Part shown: piece by piece, positions 15,063 through 25,576 of the stretch
How positions within the stretch are numbered: position 1 is the first letter of the stretch
Layout of the letters: the number at the start of each line of letters is the position of its first letter
DNA from: an uncultured Anaerolineae bacterium
GTDB lineage: Bacteria; Chloroflexota; Anaerolineae; JAAYZQ01
DNA length: 33,570 nt
Assembly (NCBI GenBank): GCA_965370895.1
Contig: CBDUWJ010000002.1
Span: 1 to 33,570, forward strand
Reading direction: 5' to 3'
Translations under genes and position numbers: made by a program
Notes under the pieces: model-generated
Database searches by the model: none
Told to the model about the DNA's origin: nothing
Seen by the model: the letters and a program-made list of their open reading frames with translations, nothing else

Positions 15063-16469
15063 TCAGGTCTCCTGGCTCACCGTCTTGGTCAGACACACGG
15101 CGACAAAGAGGGCCAAGGCCAATAGGCTCATGGCGATACCCGTCTCGAAGAGGGGCATGGTCCAGGCCTTTTCCTGACCCGGCTGGCGGAACATGAAGAG
15201 ATTTACAAAGACAAAGGACAGCGTTGATCCCACCAGCAGGCCCCAGCCAACGACCTGGCGCACCCAGCCCCGCGCCCCCAGCCGATGGGCGATGAGAAAG
15301 GTGACGATGACGGCCGACAGGGTGGCCAAAATGTGCCAGTGCCCCACCAGGATCGTCCGCTCCACCGCCAGGTAAGCTGGCGAGCGGTACGTCTCCATGT
15401 TCAGGGCGACGTAGACGCCCGGGACGGTGACCACGAAATTCACAAAGATCAATTCGAAAAAGATGCCAAAGCGGATGGGGTCGGCGAACAAAGCTCGCAG
15501 CCTCTGGCCCAGGCTAGCCGGTCCGTTTCCCAGTCGCTCACGAATCAGCCTGGTGAACCCCCAAATGGCCACAAGGATGGCGCCAGGGAGCAAAAAGGCC
15601 GAACCGATGTTGATGACCTTGTGCGCTCCTTCCCAACCGATGACTGACCAGGTGGCAAAGGTCACGACGATGGTGCCCACGATGATAAGGGGAACGGCGA
15701 TCTTGTGCACCCGGCCTTCGACACGGAATGTACGGATGACCAACAGCAGGATCATCACGTCGATTAGCGTCAGCATGATGTGCAAGTGGGCGATGATCAT
15801 CAGTTGGAACAGGGTGTGGGGATCCTGCCGGACTATGTCCTCGGCCAGAAAGGCCACAAGGCCATTGCCGAAAAAAGCCCCTGCCGCCCCGCCGATGGTC
15901 GCCGAGATGAGGGTAAAGACTGCCACCAGGAAAAAGGCCACCGGTTCCAGCGGCACGCCTCCCAGGTATGCGTAGCGGGTAGGGTTAGTAGCCCAGCGCC
16001 GCGAGGGATACAGGGCGATCGCCAGCAGGACGCCGGCGTAAAAAACCAACGATAGGCCGACCAGGTAGACGCCATGGGCGATCCAGTTACGCCCCCCGTA
16101 GGCAAAGGTCATTCCCCCCAGGCTGGTAAGCATGTAGCCAGCGGTGATGGGCACCACGATGGAGCGGCGTACGTCCTTCTCCTTCTCTGGAGGTCCCATG
16201 GGCACCTGGTCGAGGACGAGGTAAACCAGGGCAGCAACAAAGGGAATGGCCAGCGAGTGGTAGAGCATGATGATGCGACCTGCGCGATGAACATCGCTCA
16301 AGTCCACGCTGAGCAGCTCAGCCAAGCCTAGCCCCCGCACCGGCCCGGAGAAAAGCGACAGGCTGCCCACGATTAGGGCATCCCAGGCCACGACCAGGAT
16401 GAGCAGCCCAGGCAGAGAACCAAACAGGCGCTGGATAACACGTTTGACGACGTTGGATGATCGTTGCAT
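15063..16469 (-). CDS. 12-TM histidine-motif membrane protein, possibly a divergent heme-copper oxidase/NOR superfamily subunit I-like protein
   Basis: The protein is 468 aa with about 12 predicted hydrophobic helices, and GAGG lies 6 nt upstream of the ATG. Histidines sit in TM2 (MLYHSLAIPF, H71) and TM6 (IIAHLHIMLTL, H228/H230). Further histidines sit before TM8 (EGAHKVINIG, H283) and in TM10 (VGHWHILATLSAVI, H377/H379). The order, spacing and local sequence resemble COX1 motifs recalled from memory (TAHAFVMIFF, GHPEVY, WAHHMFTVG, AHFHYVLSMGAVF). Confidence 0.55.
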   Translation of the reverse strand: MQRSSNVVKRVIQRLFGSLPGLLILVVAWDALIVGSLSLFSGPVRGLGLAELLSVDLSDVHRAGRIIMLYHSLAIPFVAALVYLVLDQVPMGPPEKEKDVRRSIVVPITAGYMLTSLGGMTFAYGGRNWIAHGVYLVGLSLVFYAGVLLAIALYPSRRWATNPTRYAYLGGVPLEPVAFFLVAVFTLISATIGGAAGAFFGNGLVAFLAEDIVRQDPHTLFQLMIIAHLHIMLTLIDVMILLLVIRTFRVEGRVHKIAVPLIIVGTIVVTFATWSVIGWEGAHKVINIGSAFLLPGAILVAIWGFTRLIRERLGNGPASLGQRLRALFADPIRFGIFFELIFVNFVVTVPGVYVALNMETYRSPAYLAVERTILVGHWHILATLSAVIVTFLIAHRLGARGWVRQVVGWGLLVGSTLSFVFVNLFMFRQPGQEKAWTMPLFETGIAMSLLALALFVAVCLTKTVSQET

Positions 16470-16753: not shown

Positions 16754-19057
16754 TCACCGGCTGGCCTCGTGCCTCCGCCACAGTACGATGACCATCAGGA
16801 CAAGAAGGATCAGCAGGGTCAGCGCGCTGATCCCAAGGCCGGCATACCAAGACACCGGCTGAAAGGTCATGGTCACCTGGTGCACACCGGCCGGAACCGC
16901 CACGGAGCGGAAGGCGTAATTGGCCCGCAGGATCGGCGCCGGTTTGCCATCCAGTTCGGCCCGCCAGCCGGGGTAGAATGGATCGCTGAGGAACAGGTAG
17001 CCCTCAGCCGGGCTGTCGATCTCTATCTCCAATGCGTCCGGTTCGTAGCGCACAACTTGCACCACGGCTTGTCCCCTGGCCTCGACGTCCAGCGGCCGGC
17101 CACCCTCCAGGACTACCGTGGCGGCGGGGTCGAATCCAGGTTCGTGGATGTGCGCCCAGGCATCCTCGTGATCGGCGGCCACGATCGCCCGGTGAGCCAC
17201 AAAGGCGCGTGGCAGAGACGTCTCGTTGAGGTAGACGTTCACCGCGGGGTCGGCGTCAAAGGCCAGGCTGAACTTGTCCCAATCCAGCGTGACCTCTTTG
17301 CTGCCCAGCACGTAGCGCACCCCCAACAGATCGTAGAGCCGCGTCGAACGCCCACCGGTGCCCTCCCAGTAGCGGGCAACATCGGCAATGACAAGGGGGT
17401 TGTCCACGCCGCTCACATCGTACAGGCCAGCCAGCAAAGCCAGGTCGGGCTGCCAGTCGCCCCACACATCAGTTCGCGAGTCGATGCGGAACATGTCAGG
17501 CTCGCTGTCGAAAAAGTCCACAATCAATGGGTGCTCAAAGCCAGCCGTGGGGGCTTTGTTGCCCAGGTCGGTATAGGCTCCCACCGTTGCCAGATCCAGG
17601 AAGACTAACCCGACCGCCAGCCAGGCCAGCACGCTGCGCCGTGGGTGTCCCGCTCGGCGGGCACTGAGCCAGGCCAGGCTTGCTCCCAATATCAGCAGGG
17701 CAAATATCACTCCACTGCCCGCCGCCGACACCCGCCAGAACACGGTTGGATCGCCGTCCTGCGCCTGGTAGATCACCAGGTAGGCCCACGCTCCGCCGAT
17801 GATGACTGCGGCCCCTCCAAACCAGATCAGCCCGCGCCATACTTTCTGGAAGGCCCCGCGCGTCTGGCGGTCCATCGGCCTGAGTAGATGATCCAGGCCC
17901 ATGGCTGCCAGGCCGGCCAGGGCAAAGTCAAGGAGCAGGACTGCGCGTGCCGGGGCACGCAGTTGCCCGAATCCAGGCAGCAGCCAGTACGCCCAACCGT
18001 GAACCACAGATGACCCGCCCAGAGCCAGCAGAAAGGCGACGACGGCCAGGATGACGAACATGCGGATCCGCCGTCCGCGCCATAACAGGACTGCCAGGGC
18101 GGCCAGGATCAGCGGGAAGATACCCACATAGCCAACCGCTACCCGGTCCCAGACGCCCCAATAGAGGGCAGGCTCTCGGCTGCTGAACAGGGCTGGCACC
18201 AGCATCTCGCCCAGCAGCCCGGGGACCAGGGAATATCGGGCGGCGCTTTCATATGGTAGCGTGGCGCGGGGGCTCAGACGGGCGTACTCCACAGCGGGCA
18301 GCAGCACCAGCGCCGAGAGGCCGATGGCCACGGCAGCGGTGACGGCCAATGCCAGGAACGACCACGCCCAGCCGCGTCGCTCTCTGTGGGCGGCGATGGC
18401 TTCCGCAACCGCGGCCACGGCAAGGGCCAGGCCGATGAACAGCGTGATCTGCAGGTGGCCCTCCAGCGTGGCGAGGCCAAAGGCGACGCCGGCTCCTACG
18501 GCCAGGCCCAGACTCCGGGCCCGCAGCGCCCGCCAGAAGAGTAGAAATACCAGCGGCAGCCAGGCAGCCACACCGATGAGGTTAAGGTTGCCAAAATGGA
18601 CGATGAACATGTCGCAGAACATGTAGGCAATAGCGCCGGTGAGGGCAGCCGGGACCCGCATAGGACGGCCGGGTTCCAGGTAGCGCAGGCAGAGGTACAT
18701 GAATAGCCCAGCCAGAAAGACGTGCAGGACGGCCATCCACACCATCGCCCTGTAGGCAAAATCAGGCGCCAGCAGGAAGAGGAGCAGGTTGGGCGGGTAG
18801 AACAACCCCGTCTGCATGTCGGCCAAAAAGGGCGCACCGCTGTAGAGATGGGGGTTCCACAAAGGCAGATCCCCAGCCCGTAGACTGGCTGCTGCAAAAC
18901 GATAGGTGGGAAAGAGGAAGGAGACCAGATCGCCACCGCCGGCTGGTTTCCACGCGTCTGGGGTGAAGAGGATGCGCCAGAAGAAGCCGAGCGTTACCAG
19001 CAAGAGGACAGCAGGCGCCAAGAGCTCGCGGATGAGGGACTGACGGTTATGGGTCAT
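16754..19057 (-). CDS. YfhO-family polytopic membrane protein (GT-C-type glycosyltransferase)
   Basis: The N-terminal signature is FFWRILFTPDAWKPAGGGDLVSFLFPTYRFAAASLRAGDLPLWNPHLYSGAPFLADMQTGLFYPPNLL. More than 10 TM helices follow. There is a large extracytoplasmic C-terminal domain and a final TM anchor (GISALTLLILLVLMVIVLW). AGGAGAGGAAAG lies upstream of the ATG. Confidence 0.78.
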   Translation of the reverse strand: MTHNRQSLIRELLAPAVLLLVTLGFFWRILFTPDAWKPAGGGDLVSFLFPTYRFAAASLRAGDLPLWNPHLYSGAPFLADMQTGLFYPPNLLLFLLAPDFAYRAMVWMAVLHVFLAGLFMYLCLRYLEPGRPMRVPAALTGAIAYMFCDMFIVHFGNLNLIGVAAWLPLVFLLFWRALRARSLGLAVGAGVAFGLATLEGHLQITLFIGLALAVAAVAEAIAAHRERRGWAWSFLALAVTAAVAIGLSALVLLPAVEYARLSPRATLPYESAARYSLVPGLLGEMLVPALFSSREPALYWGVWDRVAVGYVGIFPLILAALAVLLWRGRRIRMFVILAVVAFLLALGGSSVVHGWAYWLLPGFGQLRAPARAVLLLDFALAGLAAMGLDHLLRPMDRQTRGAFQKVWRGLIWFGGAAVIIGGAWAYLVIYQAQDGDPTVFWRVSAAGSGVIFALLILGASLAWLSARRAGHPRRSVLAWLAVGLVFLDLATVGAYTDLGNKAPTAGFEHPLIVDFFDSEPDMFRIDSRTDVWGDWQPDLALLAGLYDVSGVDNPLVIADVARYWEGTGGRSTRLYDLLGVRYVLGSKEVTLDWDKFSLAFDADPAVNVYLNETSLPRAFVAHRAIVAADHEDAWAHIHEPGFDPAATVVLEGGRPLDVEARGQAVVQVVRYEPDALEIEIDSPAEGYLFLSDPFYPGWRAELDGKPAPILRANYAFRSVAVPAGVHQVTMTFQPVSWYAGLGISALTLLILLVLMVIVLWRRHEASR

Positions 19058-19082
19058 AGCTTTCCTCTCCTACTTCCAACTT

Positions 19083-21230
19083 TTAATCTCCGAGTTCTAT
19101 CGTCCCCAGCAGGATGGCATCGTCGGGCAGGGGATTTCCGGCAGCGTCAGAGGCAGGAAGTCGCGCCAGTGTCGCCAGGAGATACAGGCCGGCCTCGATC
19201 TGATAATTGCCGGGCGGAGCGTCAGCCGGTACGGTGAGCACGTGCACATCAAGGATGACCTGGCCGGGCTGCCATGTGGTAGTTGGGTAGTGGCCGCCGT
19301 CCGGTTGGCCGTCGTGCCCGGCCCAAAGTGGACCATCCATCGACGGGTTGTGCTCGCCGAGCAGGTGCGTAAACACCGTGTAGCTATCGTCCAGCGGAGC
19401 GAGGGCCTGCCAGTGAAGGGTCAGGTTGACGCTGTCCCCCGGCGCGATCCGGTCGGCGTCCAGCGAATAGCCCAGCAGCCGGACAACGCTGCCAAACACG
19501 GCATCGACAGGATGATCGGGCACCGGGGCGGCCGTGCGGCCCTCGGCCGTGGCGGGCAAGTGGTAGGCAGCAGCATAAAGGCGGCCATAATCATCGGTCA
19601 GGGTCCAGATTACCTTGCCATCGGGACGCGTCCGCTGAAGTGCAGGTAGCGTGGCTGCGTCCTCGCGGACAAGTGCAACGACGGTCGCCGCCTGGCCTGG
19701 CGGGGGAAAGACCAGCCCCGCCCGCCCGTCAAAGGTGGCAAGGGGACGGTGGACCAGGAACTGCAAGGTAAAGTGCTCGCCCGTGGTGGGTGTCAGGTAG
19801 ACGTCCTCACCGGTGGGTAAGGTATTGACATAATCTGCGACCTCGGTCAGACCCACGTCGTAGGCATAGAACAGGTCCGGGCTTTGGCTCCAGGTCAGGA
19901 AATAGGCTCGCGCGCTCGAGACTCCGGAAAAGGTCAATCCCACCGCCAGCAAGACGGTGACGCAGACCTGACAGGTTTTCCGGAGCCTTTCAGGTCTCAG
20001 GCTGGTGGCACCCTGCCACAAAGTCCATCCGCCCAGGGCGCCAAGAAGGGCCAGGGCCGGTGTGGCGCCGATGGCCCGGCCAAAGTGGGGTGCATGCTCG
20101 GTGACGAGGGTCGGCAGGATCATTACCCCCAGCCAGATCAGTGGCAACGCTGATCTCGGCCGGCCGCGCAGCGACCCGAGCAACGCCTGCCCAAGGCCGA
20201 CCATAAAGAGGAGGGCCAGAAAGGGGTCCAGAGCTGGACGGCCGGGCAGGTTGCTGCGTGGATTGGCATCACCCTGCAAGAAAAACATCCCCAGCACTCG
20301 GGGAAGGTTGTCCCCCACCGCCTGCCAGGGGCTCGCTGGTGAGCTCGCGCCACCTACCAAGGCCACACTGGCAGGTCGCTGCAGGAAGTTGTCCGGATGG
20401 GTGACAAAAAAGACGACGATGGGCGCGGCGACCAACACGGCTACCACGGTTGTCAGAAGTAGCCCCCGTCCATGGCGGCGGAGGAATCCGCGCTCGACGA
20501 CGGCGGCGTATGCGACGAATAGGACCGCCACGACGGGCACGAAATAGCCGGCTTTGTAGGTGTATGTACTTCCGCCCAAGGCCAGTCCAGCCAGGACGAA
20601 GGCAGGCCAGCCACCGGAATTCAGCCCTCGAGCCAGGGCGGCGAGGCTCAAAGTCGCGAAAAAGGGTACCAGGATCGGTTCCATGCCGATGCGGCTGAAG
20701 CTAAGGTGCCAATACAGTATGGCCAGTATCAGGGCAGTACCGAGGCCCATTATCTGTCCTCGGAGACTCATCTGATCCTCCGCCTTGCTCCTGCGGGGGC
20801 GCCCGTTCGGTGCTTCTGATGGTGTCCTACGCTGGCGTGGGCGGCCCCAGTGGGAGGTTCGAAAGAGTTCGCGACCCAGCCACCAGGCCAGGGGTATCGT
20901 CAGCGTGCCGACAATGGCCGATGGCAATCGCACAATCCACGGCTCCGGTCCCACCAAACCGAGCGCCGCGGCCACCAGGTAGATGCCCAGGGGTTCCTCG
21001 CCCATATCGCTCTCAAAGAAAAGCCGGAGAGGAGCGCCTTCGAGCAGCGCCCGGGCCGTGATGCCTTTGAACCCCTCGTCAAAGTGGAGGCCGGGTGGCA
21101 ATGACGGCAAACGATGAAAGCGGAGGGTGGCAGCGAGCAGGGTGATCAACAGGATAGCCCCCACCTCCAGGGAAGTTTCCCAGGACTTCCAGGGCCTCAC
21201 GGACGTTGGACGTCTATGGCCTTTGCTCAT
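19083..21230 (-). CDS. Glycosyltransferase family 39 (PMT/ArnT-like, GT-C) with a C-terminal beta-rich domain; paralog A
   Basis: The loop-1 motif is LRFHRLPSLPPGLHFDEGFKG, followed by RLPSAIVGTLTIPLAWWLGREL and many TM helices. The C-terminal domain VRLLGYSLDADRIAPGDSVNLTLHWQALAPLDDSYTVFTHLLG...PGNYQIEAGLYLL is shared with the upstream paralog. The start overlaps the stop of the upstream gene (ATGA at 21227-21230). Confidence 0.85.
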   Translation of the reverse strand: MSKGHRRPTSVRPWKSWETSLEVGAILLITLLAATLRFHRLPSLPPGLHFDEGFKGITARALLEGAPLRLFFESDMGEEPLGIYLVAAALGLVGPEPWIVRLPSAIVGTLTIPLAWWLGRELFRTSHWGRPRQRRTPSEAPNGRPRRSKAEDQMSLRGQIMGLGTALILAILYWHLSFSRIGMEPILVPFFATLSLAALARGLNSGGWPAFVLAGLALGGSTYTYKAGYFVPVVAVLFVAYAAVVERGFLRRHGRGLLLTTVVAVLVAAPIVVFFVTHPDNFLQRPASVALVGGASSPASPWQAVGDNLPRVLGMFFLQGDANPRSNLPGRPALDPFLALLFMVGLGQALLGSLRGRPRSALPLIWLGVMILPTLVTEHAPHFGRAIGATPALALLGALGGWTLWQGATSLRPERLRKTCQVCVTVLLAVGLTFSGVSSARAYFLTWSQSPDLFYAYDVGLTEVADYVNTLPTGEDVYLTPTTGEHFTLQFLVHRPLATFDGRAGLVFPPPGQAATVVALVREDAATLPALQRTRPDGKVIWTLTDDYGRLYAAAYHLPATAEGRTAAPVPDHPVDAVFGSVVRLLGYSLDADRIAPGDSVNLTLHWQALAPLDDSYTVFTHLLGEHNPSMDGPLWAGHDGQPDGGHYPTTTWQPGQVILDVHVLTVPADAPPGNYQIEAGLYLLATLARLPASDAAGNPLPDDAILLGTIELGD

Positions 21231-23173
21231 TCGACCACCACCTCGATGGTACCCAGCAATACCCGGTCCCCAAGGGGCTCGCCTGTATCGGGAACACGGA
21301 CTGGCAAGCGCTCAAGGGTGTCCAGCAAGTACATTCCCACTTCGAGGGTGTGGCGTCCAGGCGTGGCGCCGGTGGCAACGGTCAGGGCATAGTTGTCCTG
21401 GATGACCTGGCCGGCGGTCCAGCTATCAGTGGGCAGAGCGCCGCCCTGAGGCTCGCTGTCCATCTGCGCCTGGACCTGCTCGCCGGCGTCCAGTAGGTGG
21501 GTAAAGACGGTGTAGCGTTCGGTGATGGGGGCCAAGGCCTGCCAATAGAGCGTAAGGAGAAGTGTGCCGCCGGGAGCCACCTGGCTGGCGCTCAGGGCAT
21601 AGCCCAGAAGCCGCACCTGACCTCCCAGTTCGGCATGCAGCGGATGCTGAATGGTGTCGCCAGCCGCGGCGGGCGTCATCACGTATAGCGAGAGATCAGA
21701 ATCCACCCAGCCGCCAAAGTAGGCCTTGCTACCGTGAGTCGCCAACCAGCGGGAAAGATAGCCGTCGGGGTCGTATTCCGCCGGATTGCCAAACCGGACG
21801 AGCCACAGGCGGGGGTGCCGGGCGGCGATGTCGGCCAGGTCACGGGCTGTGTTGGGATCCTCCAACGCATACTCGTAGCGTGGGAACAAGTGCGCCTCCA
21901 GCCCCTCCGGCTGGTAGTACTCAAAGATCGGACCCTGGAGTTGGTTGGCCAGGATGAGGCCATCGCCAGGCTGCGCATTGGCCTGAATGTAGGCCATCAT
22001 CTGGCCGTACTGGCCCTTGAGGTTAGCGTCATCGGTATAGTAACTGCACAGCCCGAACCAGCTCCCGGCCAGCAAGGCAACCGCGCCCACGGCGCTCAGA
22101 GGCCGCCACAGGTGACTCCAGGCAGTCACGCCCCAGGCTGCCACGATGTAAAATGCGGGAGCGATGAGAAGCAGGTAGCGGGCATAAAAAAAGGGCATGA
22201 TAGGGTTGACCGCCCAGGCGAGAAGAAGGGGGAGGAAGAGATAGGCCACGACAAGCCATGGCTCTGGCCGGCGGCGGTGGAACGATGCCAACAGACCAGA
22301 GACGACGGCGATCAGGAAAAGGATTGTGATCACCCCAGCAGCGACGGGTGGAACTGCCTGGCCAGCCCCAAAGGCGGCAAAGGTTTCCCGGGCGATATGG
22401 GAGGCGATGGACAACCCCCACTCGTCGAATCGTGTGCTGGCCTTGCCGCCGAGAAACTCGCTCTGGACGGCGATCCAGGGGAGATATGCCAGCACAATGG
22501 CTCCCTGCACGGCCAGCCAGAGGGCCAAAGCGGATCGGGGTCGTAAGGCAGAACGTCGCCTGTGGAACAGAACGGAGATGATGACGAGGTTCTCGGCCAG
22601 GATGACAAAGATGGCATAGTAGTGGGTATAGATAGCGGCGAGAGTCGTGACGAAATAGGCCAGCCATGCTCCGCGAGACCGTGGCTGCTGGAACGCGCGT
22701 ATGGCCCAATAGACCGAAGCAGCGGCCAACAGGGTGACCAGGCCGTACATGCGGGTCTCCTGCGCGTAATAGATCAAGACCGGCGAAGCAGCGACCAAGA
22801 GGGCAGCCAGCATGCCGCCTCCCCAGGCTGCCCCCCGCCTGCGGGGCGGACTGAGGGGGGGAAAAGCGCGATTACCCAGGACGTAGGCGACCGGTACAGT
22901 CAGGGTCCCGATCAGGGCTGAAAGAAAGCGTGTGGCCAGGGGCGACGATCCAGCCAGGCGCAGCCAGAGGTAGAGCAGAAACGGGTAGAGGGGTGGGTGG
23001 GTGTCGGCCCCACCGGCGACGACCTGGGGCAGGGGTTGGCTGCTGAGCCAGATACTGAACGCCTCATCGCCCCAGATGTCCTGACGATCGATGGCGTAGC
23101 ACCGCAGACCAAAGGCCAACAGGACAATGAACAACACACCAAGATGGAACCGCCGAGCGAGCGCCCCAGTCAT
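21227..23173 (-). CDS. Glycosyltransferase family 39 (PMT/ArnT-like, GT-C) with a C-terminal beta-rich domain; paralog B
   Basis: The N-terminal signature is LRCYAIDRQDIWGDEAFSIWLS...DTHPPLYPFLLYLWLRLAGSSPLATRFLSALIGTLTVPVAY (DE motif plus hPPLY...R). The C-terminal domain is VRLLGYALSASQVAPGGTLLLTLYWQALAPITERYTVFTHLL...PGRHTLEVGMYLL. Confidence 0.85.
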   Translation of the reverse strand: MTGALARRFHLGVLFIVLLAFGLRCYAIDRQDIWGDEAFSIWLSSQPLPQVVAGGADTHPPLYPFLLYLWLRLAGSSPLATRFLSALIGTLTVPVAYVLGNRAFPPLSPPRRRGAAWGGGMLAALLVAASPVLIYYAQETRMYGLVTLLAAASVYWAIRAFQQPRSRGAWLAYFVTTLAAIYTHYYAIFVILAENLVIISVLFHRRRSALRPRSALALWLAVQGAIVLAYLPWIAVQSEFLGGKASTRFDEWGLSIASHIARETFAAFGAGQAVPPVAAGVITILFLIAVVSGLLASFHRRRPEPWLVVAYLFLPLLLAWAVNPIMPFFYARYLLLIAPAFYIVAAWGVTAWSHLWRPLSAVGAVALLAGSWFGLCSYYTDDANLKGQYGQMMAYIQANAQPGDGLILANQLQGPIFEYYQPEGLEAHLFPRYEYALEDPNTARDLADIAARHPRLWLVRFGNPAEYDPDGYLSRWLATHGSKAYFGGWVDSDLSLYVMTPAAAGDTIQHPLHAELGGQVRLLGYALSASQVAPGGTLLLTLYWQALAPITERYTVFTHLLDAGEQVQAQMDSEPQGGALPTDSWTAGQVIQDNYALTVATGATPGRHTLEVGMYLLDTLERLPVRVPDTGEPLGDRVLLGTIEVVVE

Positions 23174-23221: not shown

Positions 23222-23268
23222 CGCCAACAGAACAGTCCCTGCTCCGGCCGCGGCCGGAGCAGGGACTG
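23222..23268 (-). terminator. Perfect 36-nt palindrome acting as a Rho-independent terminator after the GH/proline-rich bicistron
   Basis: CAGTCCCTGCTCCGGCCG/CGGCCGGAGCAGGGACTG (23233-23268) has 18-nt perfectly complementary arms. On the minus strand it is followed by TTCTGTT. It starts 21 nt after the TAG at 23289-23291. Confidence 0.65.
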
Positions 23269-23288: not shown

Positions 23289-24431
23289 CTACCCGATTCG
23301 CTCTTCCAGGAGGGCAATGACCGTATCAAGCTTCTCAAAGAGCTGCCGCCAGAGCTCCTCGTGTGGTGAGGGTGGTGGCGGCGGTGGTGGTGGCGGTGGA
23401 GGGGGCTCGCCGCCAGGCATAAACCCGAGCGTAACATCCAGGTGGCGGGGGGTGCCCAACACTCGCCCCAGCCCGATTACTGCATCGCTGTTCCCCGCGG
23501 ATCCCTTCACGAGGGCCAGGTATGGCCCTCGGCCGGGTACGGGATACTTGGAATCGGTCTCCAGCGGGAAACGCGCCGCGCCATCAGCGCCGGTTTCCAG
23601 GGCATGACCTGCCGTTCCATCCCAGCGTCGGAAGGACACAGGGATGCCCTCCAGTGGATTCCCTTGCTCATCCAGGACCGTGATCTTACATTCGTGGATG
23701 TCCACGACCTCACGGAGTTCGGCCAAGCGGTAAGCGTCAGGTTCAGGAGATGCATGATGCTCCACTGTCCCGAAGAGATGCTCCAGCCAGGCCACGTCTC
23801 GCGGTTGACCATCTTTGTCAATGATGTCAAAGCCTGGGGAGGGAGGAGGTGGCGGCGGTGGGGGTGGTGGTGACGGCGGCGGTGGCGGCGGTGGAGGTGA
23901 CGGCGGTGGTGGTGGTGACGGCTCCTCCAACTCTTCCAGCCGATAGGCAACGTCCAGGTGGCGGTGGTTGGTGGCCCCCAACATGCCCAACCCGCTCAAA
24001 AAGTCGGCTGGGCCTGACTCATCAGCCACCCACACGGCACTGGCCCCCACGTTGGGGGGAAAGTAGTAGTCGCCATGCCCCATGCCAAAGCCGATGTCAC
24101 CTTCTGCCTTGGTCTCGCCGTACACTCCCCTGTCGCGCCACATGCTGGTGGGCGCTGGCCACGATGGTAGCTGGGGTGCATCTGGCCAATGGCGGACGAC
24201 CTTGATCCCTTGGAGGGGATTGGCATCTTGGTCCGCCACCTGCACAACCTGGGCCGCTGGCCCTTCGCTGTCTTGCAGTGCTACGATGCGGTATACGCGA
24301 CTTACCCCTTCAGGAGCATCAGCCCGCTCCAGGGTGATGGCCCCAAAGTTGGCGACGAGCCAATCCCAATCCTGTTCTTGTCCCTGCTGATCAAAGATCT
24401 TGGGCTTATCCACTGGTGTCCTCTCTTTCAT
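23289..24431 (-). CDS. Two-module beta-sandwich (CarboxypepD_reg-like) protein with polyproline linkers and a C-terminal amphipathic helix tag; function unknown
   Basis: The start is assigned to the ATG at 24431 (MKERTPVDKPKIF), 19 nt after the upstream stop. The longer track ORF would overlap the upstream gene. Module 1 contains DWDWLVANFGAI...VQVADQDANPLQGIKV...GLGMLGATNHRHLDVAYRL. Module 2 contains DVAWLEHLFGTV...ITVLDEQGNPLEGIPV...GLGRVLGTPRHLDVTLGF. The first linker is PSPPPPPSPPPPPPPPSPPPPPPPPPPSP (23835-23921). The second linker is P12-SP (23364-23405). The tail is EELWRQLFEKLDTVIALLEERIG. No signal peptide is present. Confidence 0.7.
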   Translation of the reverse strand: MKERTPVDKPKIFDQQGQEQDWDWLVANFGAITLERADAPEGVSRVYRIVALQDSEGPAAQVVQVADQDANPLQGIKVVRHWPDAPQLPSWPAPTSMWRDRGVYGETKAEGDIGFGMGHGDYYFPPNVGASAVWVADESGPADFLSGLGMLGATNHRHLDVAYRLEELEEPSPPPPPSPPPPPPPPSPPPPPPPPPPSPGFDIIDKDGQPRDVAWLEHLFGTVEHHASPEPDAYRLAELREVVDIHECKITVLDEQGNPLEGIPVSFRRWDGTAGHALETGADGAARFPLETDSKYPVPGRGPYLALVKGSAGNSDAVIGLGRVLGTPRHLDVTLGFMPGGEPPPPPPPPPPPPSPHEELWRQLFEKLDTVIALLEERIG

Positions 24432-24450
24432 CCCAGGCGGCAGGTACCAC

Positions 24451-25428
24451 CTAGAGCCTCTCACGTGCCAGGACGACGATCCGATCCACGCGCTCCAGGA
24501 CCTCAGCCCACAGGGCGTCTTCGTCAGGAGGTGGAGACGGACACGGTTCTTGCAGGCGATACACAGGGGTGGCCTGTTGGGCCAAGGCCCCGGCCAAATC
24601 GGGCCAGATGTCATAGCTCTTCCATTGCCAATCAGTCGTGCTGCAGCAGTAGATGGCTGCCCCCGCGACATAAGGGTCTTTCAGTAGCTCGGCATCGTAC
24701 CAGGCCAACTGCTGGAGATACCGCTGAGCGTCTCCTTCATGAAGGACCCTCCAACCACGCGGTGGATGTCCTCGCTCAATGAGGCCGTCAAGTCCGCATT
24801 CCGTGATGAGCAGCGGTAGGGCTTTCAGGTTCTCGGGTAGTCCCTCCCAGTTGTGCTCTGGCTCGCCGTCGTACACCTTGCGGTGGCGGAGCAGGTGCCA
24901 TGGCCACTTGTGATCCAGGGAGGGCCAGGCATATTCGTGAAGGGCCAGCGCGCCGCCGTATTGAAGGGCAGTTTCCAATGCCGGCAAAAAGTCCTGCCAG
25001 TAGACCAATTCCGGATTGCCCACCGAAAAGCTGCCCACAACCACGCTGCAACCGTGGCTGTCCATGATCCGTACCCGCTCCGCCTCAAAGTCGGCGTAGC
25101 GCGCCATGGCCTGAGAAGAGTCAATAGTCGGCTCGTTGACGCCTTGCCAGTAACTGTAGGTTTCGCCCATGCGCTCGGCCCAAGGCAAGATCTTGTCGCA
25201 GTGATCCTGAGCAGCCACCAAAGGGTCGAGGGTTGGGTTGTTAAAGTCAGGCTCGAACTCCTGGAAAACGCGTCCCACAAACGTGGTCTTGGGCGATGCG
25301 GCTTTGACGTGATGCCACACCTCGCTGTGATCGAGAATCACGACAACGGGTGGCTCCCACTCCTGGATGGCCTCGGGCAGCCCTCCGACTGTCGTGTTCA
25401 CGTGAGCCCCCAATAGACTGTAACCCAT
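24451..25428 (-). CDS. Clan GH-A (GH5-like) TIM-barrel glycoside hydrolase with a C-terminal Pro spacer plus amphipathic helix tag
   Basis: AAGGAGG lies 9 nt upstream of the ATG. The acid/base motif is WQGVNEP (E99). An HxY motif is present in LALHEY. The nucleophile motif is LLITECG (E210, 111 residues after E99). The tail is PSPPPDEDALWAEVLERVDRIVVLARERL. No signal peptide or TM helix is present. Confidence 0.72.
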   Translation of the reverse strand: MGYSLLGAHVNTTVGGLPEAIQEWEPPVVVILDHSEVWHHVKAASPKTTFVGRVFQEFEPDFNNPTLDPLVAAQDHCDKILPWAERMGETYSYWQGVNEPTIDSSQAMARYADFEAERVRIMDSHGCSVVVGSFSVGNPELVYWQDFLPALETALQYGGALALHEYAWPSLDHKWPWHLLRHRKVYDGEPEHNWEGLPENLKALPLLITECGLDGLIERGHPPRGWRVLHEGDAQRYLQQLAWYDAELLKDPYVAGAAIYCCSTTDWQWKSYDIWPDLAGALAQQATPVYRLQEPCPSPPPDEDALWAEVLERVDRIVVLARERL

Positions 25429-25547: not shown

Positions 25548-25576
25548 ATTATACCCTAAAAGCAAAGAATTGTAAA
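25548..25576 (-). promoter_or_regulatory. Candidate promoter for the GH/proline-rich bicistron
   Basis: The reverse strand reads TTTACA (25576-25571), then 17 nt, then TATAAT (25553-25548). It lies about 115 nt upstream of the ATG at 25428. Confidence 0.5.

Follow-up and report, generated by a model that had tools for sequence, protein, structure and literature searches.

A shared C-terminal helix on proline-rich tethers in a two-gene Chloroflexota locus: a candidate assembly tag for a predicted glycosidase and a beta-sandwich protein

The window analysed here is a stretch of 33,570 nucleotides of DNA from an uncultured Anaerolineae bacterium (GenBank contig CBDUWJ010000002.1). On its minus strand, two adjacent genes, A and B, encode a predicted glycosidase of clan GH-A and a protein made of two beta-sandwich modules. 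Both products end in an amphipathic helix of 22-24 residues placed directly behind a proline-rich spacer, the C-termini reading ...EPCPSPPPDEDALWAEVLERVDRIVVLARERL in A and ...GGEPPPPPPPPPPPPSPHEELWRQLFEKLDTVIALLEERIG in B (Table 1). This terminal helix, called the tag below, is a portable module, conserved at the peptide level and so far unannotated. Our reading of its function is tentative, at a probability of roughly 0.45: the tag would be a coiled-coil helix by which A is assembled with B.

The genes, taken from the list of open reading frames, follow one another in the order promoter, gene A, gene B, inverted repeat. The promoter sits in the divergent intergenic region common to gene A and trxB, and the gap between A and B is about 20 nt. 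An earlier note on this DNA had described a good promoter before A, which the consensus scan bears out, and a very strong terminator behind B. The inverted repeat is perfect over 18 bases and the 81-nt segment that contains it folds with -54.9 kcal/mol (z -5.0), but for want of a U-run behind it, it was not among the calls of the terminator scan; it is likely to be a transcript-end or attenuating structure. The start of gene B is ambiguous between ATG 24431 (380 aa) and an in-frame GTG at 24413 (374 aa), and most B orthologues start at the position equivalent to the GTG.

Table 1. Features of the A-B locus in window coordinates
Feature	Position (nt)	Strand	Details and basis
Sigma-70-like promoter upstream of gene A	25548..25576	-	TTTACA-17-TATAAT, 11/12 consensus matches (consensus scan)
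Gene A, 325 aa: GH-A barrel, spacer, tag	24451..25428 (stop codon included)	-	List of open reading frames
A catalytic barrel, residues 1-292	24553..25428	-	Coordinates from sequence
A presumed catalytic Glu motif VNEPT	25126-25140	-	Conservation in aligned homologues
A presumed catalytic Glu motif ITECG	24793-24807	-	Conservation in aligned homologues
A spacer QEPCPSPPPD, residues 293-302	24523..24552	-	Block of low predicted local distance difference test score (pLDDT) in the AlphaFold2 model
A tag EDALWAEVLERVDRIVVLARERL, residues 303-325	24454..24522	-	Predicted helix 303-324; 27.5 bits with the hidden Markov model (HMM) of the tag; kept in orthologues
Gene B, 380 aa from ATG 24431	23289..24431 (stop codon included)	-	List of open reading frames
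B internal spacer EEPSPPPPPSPPPPPPPPSPPPPPPPPPPSPG, residues 169-200	23832..23927	-	Sequence; pLDDT 67-72 in model
B terminal spacer PGGEPPPPPPPPPPPPSP, residues 339-356	23364..23417	-	Sequence
B tag HEELWRQLFEKLDTVIALLEERIG, residues 357-380	23292..23363	-	Predicted helix 356-379; tag HMM 28.6 bits; kept in orthologues
Perfect 18-base inverted repeat after gene B (17 pairs in the predicted fold)	23233..23268	-	RNA fold
Two PMT_2-type genes and one YfhO-type gene, downstream of B	16754-23173	-	

Aligned without gaps, the tags of A and B share 7 identities and 15 positives over 23 positions. They are the sole similarity between the two proteins that BLASTP finds at E <0.1 (E 0.011), and the best match to the A tag among the 42,574 23-residue words of the six-frame translated window is the B tag (BLOSUM62 score 52; next 37). 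The DNA encoding them is identical at 35 of 69 positions (51%), with the same codon at four of the seven identical residues, and this low identity rules out a recent DNA duplication of the tag. By hydropathy, neither A nor B has a signal peptide or a transmembrane segment (highest 19-residue Kyte-Doolittle means of 0.90 and 0.75), and no signal peptide was found in 157 orthologues. The N-terminal 15-residue hydropathy maximum is 1.29 in 88 A orthologues and 1.58 in 69 B orthologues; distant homologues that do bear signals have values of 2.25-3.12. What the earlier note observed thus holds throughout, including the shared helical tag, the Pro-rich spacer directly before each copy, a kinship at the peptide level that does not stem from recent DNA duplication, and the lack of N-terminal signal peptides and membrane segments.

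Searches with A and B gave 289 and 76 metagenomic representatives, respectively; the few named are from Anaerolineae or Chloroflexota. The helix is present in 163 of the 196 homologues listed from these searches, which answers in the affirmative the check on orthologues that the earlier note had proposed. Numbered from the nearly invariant Asp (position 0) and tabulated over 152 distinct tags, it has the core [RK]-L-D-R-I-I-x-L-L-E (Table 2), and its mean net charge over 21 residues is -0.9. What precedes it varies. In the A forms, the tag follows either the barrel alone (about 325 aa) or the barrel and an extra beta domain (about 450 aa), in the B forms one module (about 215 aa, the majority) or two, as in the window, and it is present too in proteins that consist of an Ig-like module and the tag (P0198 and P0203). 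The linkers before it run from about 9 to 80 residues with 24-38% Pro across orthologues (about 9-80 aa and 24-33% Pro in A, a median of 38 aa and 38% Pro in B). Because unrelated domains precede the tag and the linker is so variable in length, the tag counts as a module that does not belong to any one fold; the domain insertions and the variable linkers rule out that it is simply the helix with which the fold ends. The claim of a portable tag made in the earlier note is thereby upheld.

Table 2. Conserved positions of the tag, with the residues preferred in A and in B
Position	152 distinct tags	A tags	B tags
-8	W/L	L 54%, W 26%	W 94%
-5	L/V	V	L
-4	L/F	L	F
-2	R/K, 144/152	R	K
-1	L, 135/152		
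0	D, 137/152		
+1	R, 106/152		
+2	I, 132/152		
+3	I/L/V		
+6	L, 149/152		
+7	E, 100/152	E 40%, Q 22%, R 17%	E 95%
Net charge of C-terminal part		+0.24	-1.25

The protein usually ends 10-13 residues after the tag Asp, and in some orthologues 10-25 extra residues or a whole domain follow the helix. Some A orthologues have a domain of about 70 aa after a degenerate tag helix, an observation made on P0037, P0039, P0061 and P0070 and at loci L176:2348-4219 and L177-L195. This domain (SIGxATM..DGTI.L.LRAEG ... HLGGL.PGE.KPVPPWPDE) belongs to no Pfam family; elsewhere it makes up a small protein by itself, in most cases one that has a signal peptide or lipobox. In two other A orthologues, P0027 and P0079, a cationic amphipathic helix replaces the tag, for example SMLGKIISLFKRLLTTL. 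At L197:167-2478, where A has such a cationic helix, the tag of the partner B is degenerate in its C-terminal half (LDRIEARLKD).

Gene A has no match in Pfam, PHROGs, NCBIfam, PADLOC or the sequences of the PDB, and its sequence matches no existing GH family; its 289 homologues are cluster representatives without annotation, and a tblastn search of cultured-phage genomes found nothing. The AlphaFold2 model, built on an alignment of 62 homologues, is a (beta/alpha)8 barrel with a mean pLDDT of 90.2. Its Foldseek neighbours are GH5, GH26, GH39, GH1, GH158 and GH2 barrels, at a probability of 1.00 and with a TM-score of only about 0.5. Residues N98, E99, P100, T209, E210 and C211 are each conserved in at least 90% of the 62 aligned homologues, and the NEP and TEC Glu motifs stand at the positions expected of the catalytic residues in clan GH-A. 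Because the barrel fold, the GH-A neighbours of that fold and the conserved Glu motifs go together with the lack of any family match, A is classed as a distant, as yet unclassified glycosidase of clan GH-A, with its activity predicted from the model. The barrel retains 3-7 cysteines, a conserved CC pair among them. Distant A-like barrels without signal peptide or tag are fused to GH25 muramidase (P0103, P0105, P0109 and P0115) or to Amidase_2 (P0110, P0112, P0113 and P0118), an endolysin-like architecture which suggests that the A barrel may act on cell-wall glycan. An untagged A-like gene occurs on a 121.8-kb viral contig of a large phage (both L035:12223-12729 and L173:10001-10912 lie on this contig), and the same contig encodes elsewhere, beside head-morphogenesis genes, a protein composed of an Ig-like domain, a PD-repeat linker and a canonical tag.

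Gene B is laid out as two homologous beta-sandwich modules with a poly-Pro spacer after each, followed by the tag. The modules (residues 1-168 and 200-338) are 31% identical (E 7e-12) and have in common a 'D.QG.E.DW.WL...FG' strand-helix at their start, the trace of an internal duplication spanning window positions 23418-24431. AlphaFold2 gives two beta-sandwich domains with a mean pLDDT of 90.6 and a predicted TM-score (pTM) of 0.55. Pfam yields weak matches to Big_1 and CarboxypepD_reg, none above cut-off, and PHROGs, NCBIfam, PADLOC and PDB sequences yield no match. The fold neighbours are generic (pilins, adhesins, S-layer proteins, transthyretin-like domains and phage baseplate or fibre proteins), and the 76 metagenomic representatives are mostly single-module proteins of about 215 aa. 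The product of B is probably a binding or spacer module. BLASTP finds no similarity between the B module and the extra beta domain of the long A forms, so that these forms provide no Rosetta-stone link to B.

The pairing of the two genes is stable. Gene B is present in all of 11 related Chloroflexota loci, and A adjoins it in all nine loci that cover that stretch, with gaps ranging from a 1-nt overlap to about 40 nt. Upstream of A, the divergent neighbours are trxB, DUF1858, Fe-ADH and AFOR, and the position is therefore a stable chromosomal one and not that of a prophage. Two PMT_2-type and one YfhO-type GT-C glycosyltransferase genes follow A-B in five of nine fully covered loci. The GT-C enzymes act on the outer face of the membrane, and if A and B are exported, their Pro/Ser-rich spacers are plausible targets of O-glycosylation. 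With the tag HMM, A and B score 26-35 bits in the window and in six syntenic loci, where the next-best match reaches 10.9 bits; the related Chloroflexota loci examined hold no tag carrier besides A and B. Among 166 motif-bearing loci (1.3 Mb), two tags occur together only at A/B loci.

We suggest that the tag is a tethered, self-associating coiled-coil helix that would assemble the co-transcribed products A and B into one complex. A common bundle of C-terminal helices would hold the glycosidase and the beta-sandwich protein, each by its own flexible, Pro-rich tether, and the outcome would be a multivalent two-component glycan hydrolase. Over the 152 distinct tags, the hydrophobic positions -8, -5, -4, -1, +2, +3, +6 and +10 fall on a, d and e of a heptad repeat, the b flank bears the acidic residues (D at 0, E at +7) and the g flank the basic R at -2, and the remaining face is variable. 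The helix thus has the periodicity and the complementary charged flanks of a coiled coil, and with one acidic and one basic flank it is self-complementary, as expected for a parallel bundle. It resembles the GCN4-pLI-type tetramers and higher-order bundles in that its three heptads place Leu at a, Ile at d and a hydrophobic residue at e, with one acidic and one basic flank, although an invariant Asp in the middle of the helix is not a general feature of coiled coils. Leu at a combined with Ile at d favours tetramers in GCN4 variants (the Harbury rules). We infer that the helices bind each other, probably in bundles of three or more, that the substrate is an envelope glycan, and likewise the cellular location of A and B.

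The differences between the two tags also speak for their assembly. The A-type and B-type preferences of Table 2 are stable across lineages; small against large and basic against acidic, they are what would be expected of two non-equivalent partners in a bundle, and not of two ligands of one pocket, which should converge. One lineage, L197, has changed both tags, that of A to a cationic helix and that of B to a degenerate one, and we count this for pairing, the apparent co-change resting on that one locus. The recurrence of the core motif, described below, on proteins that typically self-associate (Xre-type helix-turn-helix proteins, XkdF-like proteins, small single-pass membrane proteins and the P0197 type) is counted for assembly too. 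Oligomerisation was one of the options that the earlier note listed without favouring it; it is now the best supported of these, though by inference.

Several observations weigh against assembly of A with B. No covariation is seen among 18 cognate A-B pairs, in which the charge correlation is about 0 and tag identity is 7.0 for cognate and 7.8 for non-cognate combinations. The search for further carriers was insensitive, with only 8 proteins passing E 0.001 among 1.84 billion. Several features have an extracytoplasmic look although neither protein has a signal peptide, so that localisation, and not pairing, may be what the tag is for. The extracytoplasmic hints are the Pro/Ser-rich linkers, the pilin- and adhesin-like beta-sandwiches, the distant B-module homologues with signal peptides or lipoboxes, the GT-C glycosyltransferases downstream and the post-tag domain that elsewhere is mostly a secreted lipoprotein. 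The cationic helix that replaces the tag in P0027 and P0079 also fits a localising role as well as it fits pairing.

These hints keep alive an explanation that we hold to be unlikely but a serious contender, in which the tag is an address label read by a third component: a signal-peptide-independent exporter, a membrane or surface receptor, or a scaffold. Through that component, which might itself bear the same helix, A and B would reach the envelope, the place of action of the neighbouring GT-C glycosyltransferases. On such an account, the absence of signal peptides from A, B and the 157 orthologues, set beside their presence, or that of lipoboxes, in distant homologues of the B module, would be explained, and the likeness of the B folds to surface proteins (pilins, adhesins and S-layer proteins) would fall into place. 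The same applies to the spacers, whose composition is like that of O-glycosylated linkers, to the glycosyltransferase trio, to the lipoprotein-like domain behind the tag in P0037-type A proteins and to the membrane-type character of the cationic helix in P0027 and P0079. Membrane proteins that end in the motif do exist, and P0197 combines two transmembrane segments with 11 matched copies of it, but the 3.8-kb contig that encodes it is unplaced. Across the 11 loci, A-B has no conserved neighbour that encodes a transporter, ATPase or receptor. The consensus residues that A and B tags keep are different, which is unexpected for one shared pocket, and a free C-terminus is not required, given the orthologues with residues or a domain after the helix. 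Moreover, the motif is also found on cytoplasmic helix-turn-helix and Zn-finger proteins and at N-termini, and the A barrel keeps its cysteines, a feature unusual among the exported proteins of monoderm anaerobes. The earlier suggestion of non-classical export or surface docking tied to the glycosylation genes has in its favour the glycosyltransferase trio and the signal peptides or lipoboxes of distant B-module homologues, and against it the lack of a conserved transporter nearby and the presence of the motif on plainly cytoplasmic proteins.

The other explanations fare worse. That the helix acts within its own chain, for instance by folding back on the barrel to inhibit or stabilise it, is quite improbable: AlphaFold2 does model the tag helices of A and B with pLDDT values of about 90-95, but the same helix occurs behind three unrelated kinds of domain, is separated from the barrel by whole domains and by the long and variable linkers, and in the B model goes with a pTM expected of beads on a string. 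A helix that binds the membrane directly, like the C-terminal helices of MinD and FtsA or the anchor of PBP5, is very improbable. The strong amphipathicity of the terminal helix and its flexible tether would suit such a role, as would the clearly cationic helix at the same place in two A orthologues. Known membrane-targeting helices are cationic, however, and the tag is on average negatively charged with its invariant Asp and conserved Glu on the flanks, while the conservation of its polar residues goes beyond what lipid binding alone would call for. Least credible of all is that the tag is an encapsulation peptide for a bacterial microcompartment (BMC) or encapsulin shell encoded elsewhere in the genome. 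The architecture is right, since BMC encapsulation peptides pair a poorly conserved linker with an amphipathic terminal helix of about 20 residues (PMC11585597), and SPU-type BMC loci are found in Chloroflexi, Anaerolineae among them. The helices at A 303-324 and B 356-379 conform to this pattern, as do portability and the presence of several carriers per system known for PduP, PduD, EutC and CcmN. Here, however, the carriers are a glycosidase and an Ig-like protein, and no cargo is known that combines a glycosidase with tandem Ig-like modules tethered by poly-Pro. The tag also has a fixed polar signature (R-L-D-R ... E, with its invariant Asp and conserved Arg and Glu) where encapsulation peptides are poorly conserved in sequence. 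Neither the genes scanned in the window nor the precomputed Pfam tables for loci L001-L006 include a BMC-H/T, BMC-P or encapsulin shell family (PF00936 and PF03319 included), and no shell locus lies close to A-B in the window or in the four related loci with called genes, the other 8-kb A/B loci having been compared by mutual BLAST and not with Pfam. The cargo of a BMC is normally encoded inside the shell locus. The cargo-loading peptides of encapsulins are short, extended and Gly/Ser-rich (LTVGSL-like in family 1) and not helical, while the tag is a helix of 22-24 aa with the core RLDRII.LLE, and the scanned genes and Pfam tables just named contain no encapsulin family. Microcompartment or encapsulin targeting, which the earlier note had raised, is accordingly not supported for this helix, whose character is acidic to neutral.

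A sortase-type signal (LPXTG, PEP-CTERM or GlyGly-CTERM) was considered and rejected, as there is no hydrophobic segment and no signal peptide and the tag is charged throughout. The WXG and YxxxD/E motifs of type VII secretion are absent from both tag sequences, and neither the genes called in L001-L006 nor those scanned in the window include an FtsK/SpoIIIE-type ATPase.

If the tag joins A and B, its nearest functional analogues would be the docking helices and modules through which the products of adjacent genes are brought together. The docking domains of polyketide synthases and nonribosomal peptide synthetases, the cohesin-dockerin pairs of cellulosomes and the two-gene endolysin PlyC (PlyCA with PlyCB) likewise use short terminal modules on linkers, by which a catalytic subunit is joined to binding or scaffold subunits from separate but adjacent and co-transcribed genes; they are not related to the tag in sequence or fold, and the A-B case differs in that both partners carry the same kind of single helix, so that pairing would be homotypic. 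Linker-tethered helix tags are of a known kind, and what is new is this sequence family and its two-gene setting. The most probable function of the tag is ordinary in principle.

The core motif is not confined to A and B. A degenerate DNA pattern for h-h-x-[R/K-like]-L-D-R-I-I-x-h-L-E gave 45 loci in IMG/VR (L007-L051), compared with 2 for a control with the residues reversed and 7 for one with D and E swapped, and it gave 112 stretches in species-representative genomes (L061-L172). The in-frame matches are strongly biased to protein termini. At the C-terminus, the motif is carried by phage CxxCxGxG zinc-finger proteins and Xre-type helix-turn-helix proteins. Other proteins have the motif at the N-terminus, followed by a Pro-rich linker, and further carriers are a giant-virus family, a Neobacillus family, XkdF-like protease or scaffold proteins of Clostridia, and very small proteins consisting of a transmembrane segment and the motif. 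The sequence hh.[RK]LDRII.hLE is therefore met as a recurrent terminal helix in many unrelated proteins of phages, bacteria, archaea and giant viruses.

Profile searches extended this little. A search of 1.84 billion representative proteins with the tag profile left 8 at E 0.001, namely five B-module proteins or fragments, one 39-residue fragment of linker and tag, one low-complexity repeat and P0197; a profile of 24 positions is too weak for a database of that size, and the want of further matches does not mean an absence of carriers. A homologue search with the tag alignment returned 1 match from 110 candidates, and a profile search of the PDB returned matches at chance level only. P0197 (L175:1642-3531, 629 aa) is the best match of the profile among the 1.84 billion. 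It has two N-terminal transmembrane segments, its 11 matched motif copies joined by low-complexity linkers and a C-terminal zinc ribbon, a build resembling that of a multivalent scaffold for this helix. In the PDB, the coiled coil at the N-terminus of linker L2 from earthworm haemoglobin contains an exact RLDRII, which is a lead and not a test.

At the level of sequence the tag resembles only the C-terminal helix of DUF4083 (PF13314), to which a core '(K/R)LDRIIELLE' with a conserved Asp aligns at profile positions of about 33-57. Consensus-like tags of A and B orthologues score 15.7-17.1 bits against this family and other motif carriers 12-21.8 bits, below the gathering cut-off of 25.4; the two tags of the window do not match it. 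DUF4083 proteins are of about 60 aa and single-pass with an N-terminal transmembrane segment, whereas A and B have 325 and 380 aa and no such segment. The family has no known function, so likeness to it offers no explanation as yet. Searches of the literature for DUF4083 and the motif strings gave nothing relevant, and no paper describing the motif was found.

A wider interpretation may be placed on these recurrences. The 'LDRII helix' could be a general, undescribed docking module that in Anaerolineae takes two signal-peptide-less envelope enzymes to or across the membrane by pairing with membrane proteins bearing the same helix. This seems to us a long shot. The membrane partners could be DUF4083-like single-pass proteins or multi-copy scaffolds such as P0197. 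If true, it would add to the monoderm phylum a new signal-peptide-independent route of export or surface display, and a module widely reused by phages.

The narrower readings have consequences of their own. Both A, with 289 representatives, and B, with 76, are unannotated families without a Pfam match above cut-off. As an assembly tag, the helix would make A-B a two-gene glycan hydrolase built on a principle other than that of the single-chain designs in which enzyme and binding module are joined, and it would be a natural tag for heteromerisation, compact and borne on a rigid tether of poly-Pro. As an address label it would mark an unknown localisation route in Chloroflexota. As a recurrent terminal helix of small phage and bacterial proteins that overlaps DUF4083, the core motif gives a testable entry point to many 'hypothetical' proteins. 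An envelope glycan may be what A and B act on, in view of the extracytoplasmic hints, the endolysin-like fusions and the phage contig.

Two further observations concern the neighbours of A and B. A 468-aa polytopic membrane protein (window 15063-16469, minus strand) has His-rich transmembrane motifs (IIAHLHIML and GHWHILATL) and matches no family; homologues of it are encoded close to A-B in L001, and immediately behind B in L002 and L003. In the closest relative of the window, L001 on the 2.15-Mb contig CAVOXA010000010.1, AFOR and Fe-ADH are called as several short fragments (L001:5177-8300), a sign either of pseudogenes or of frameshifts introduced by assembly errors; the copies in the window are intact.

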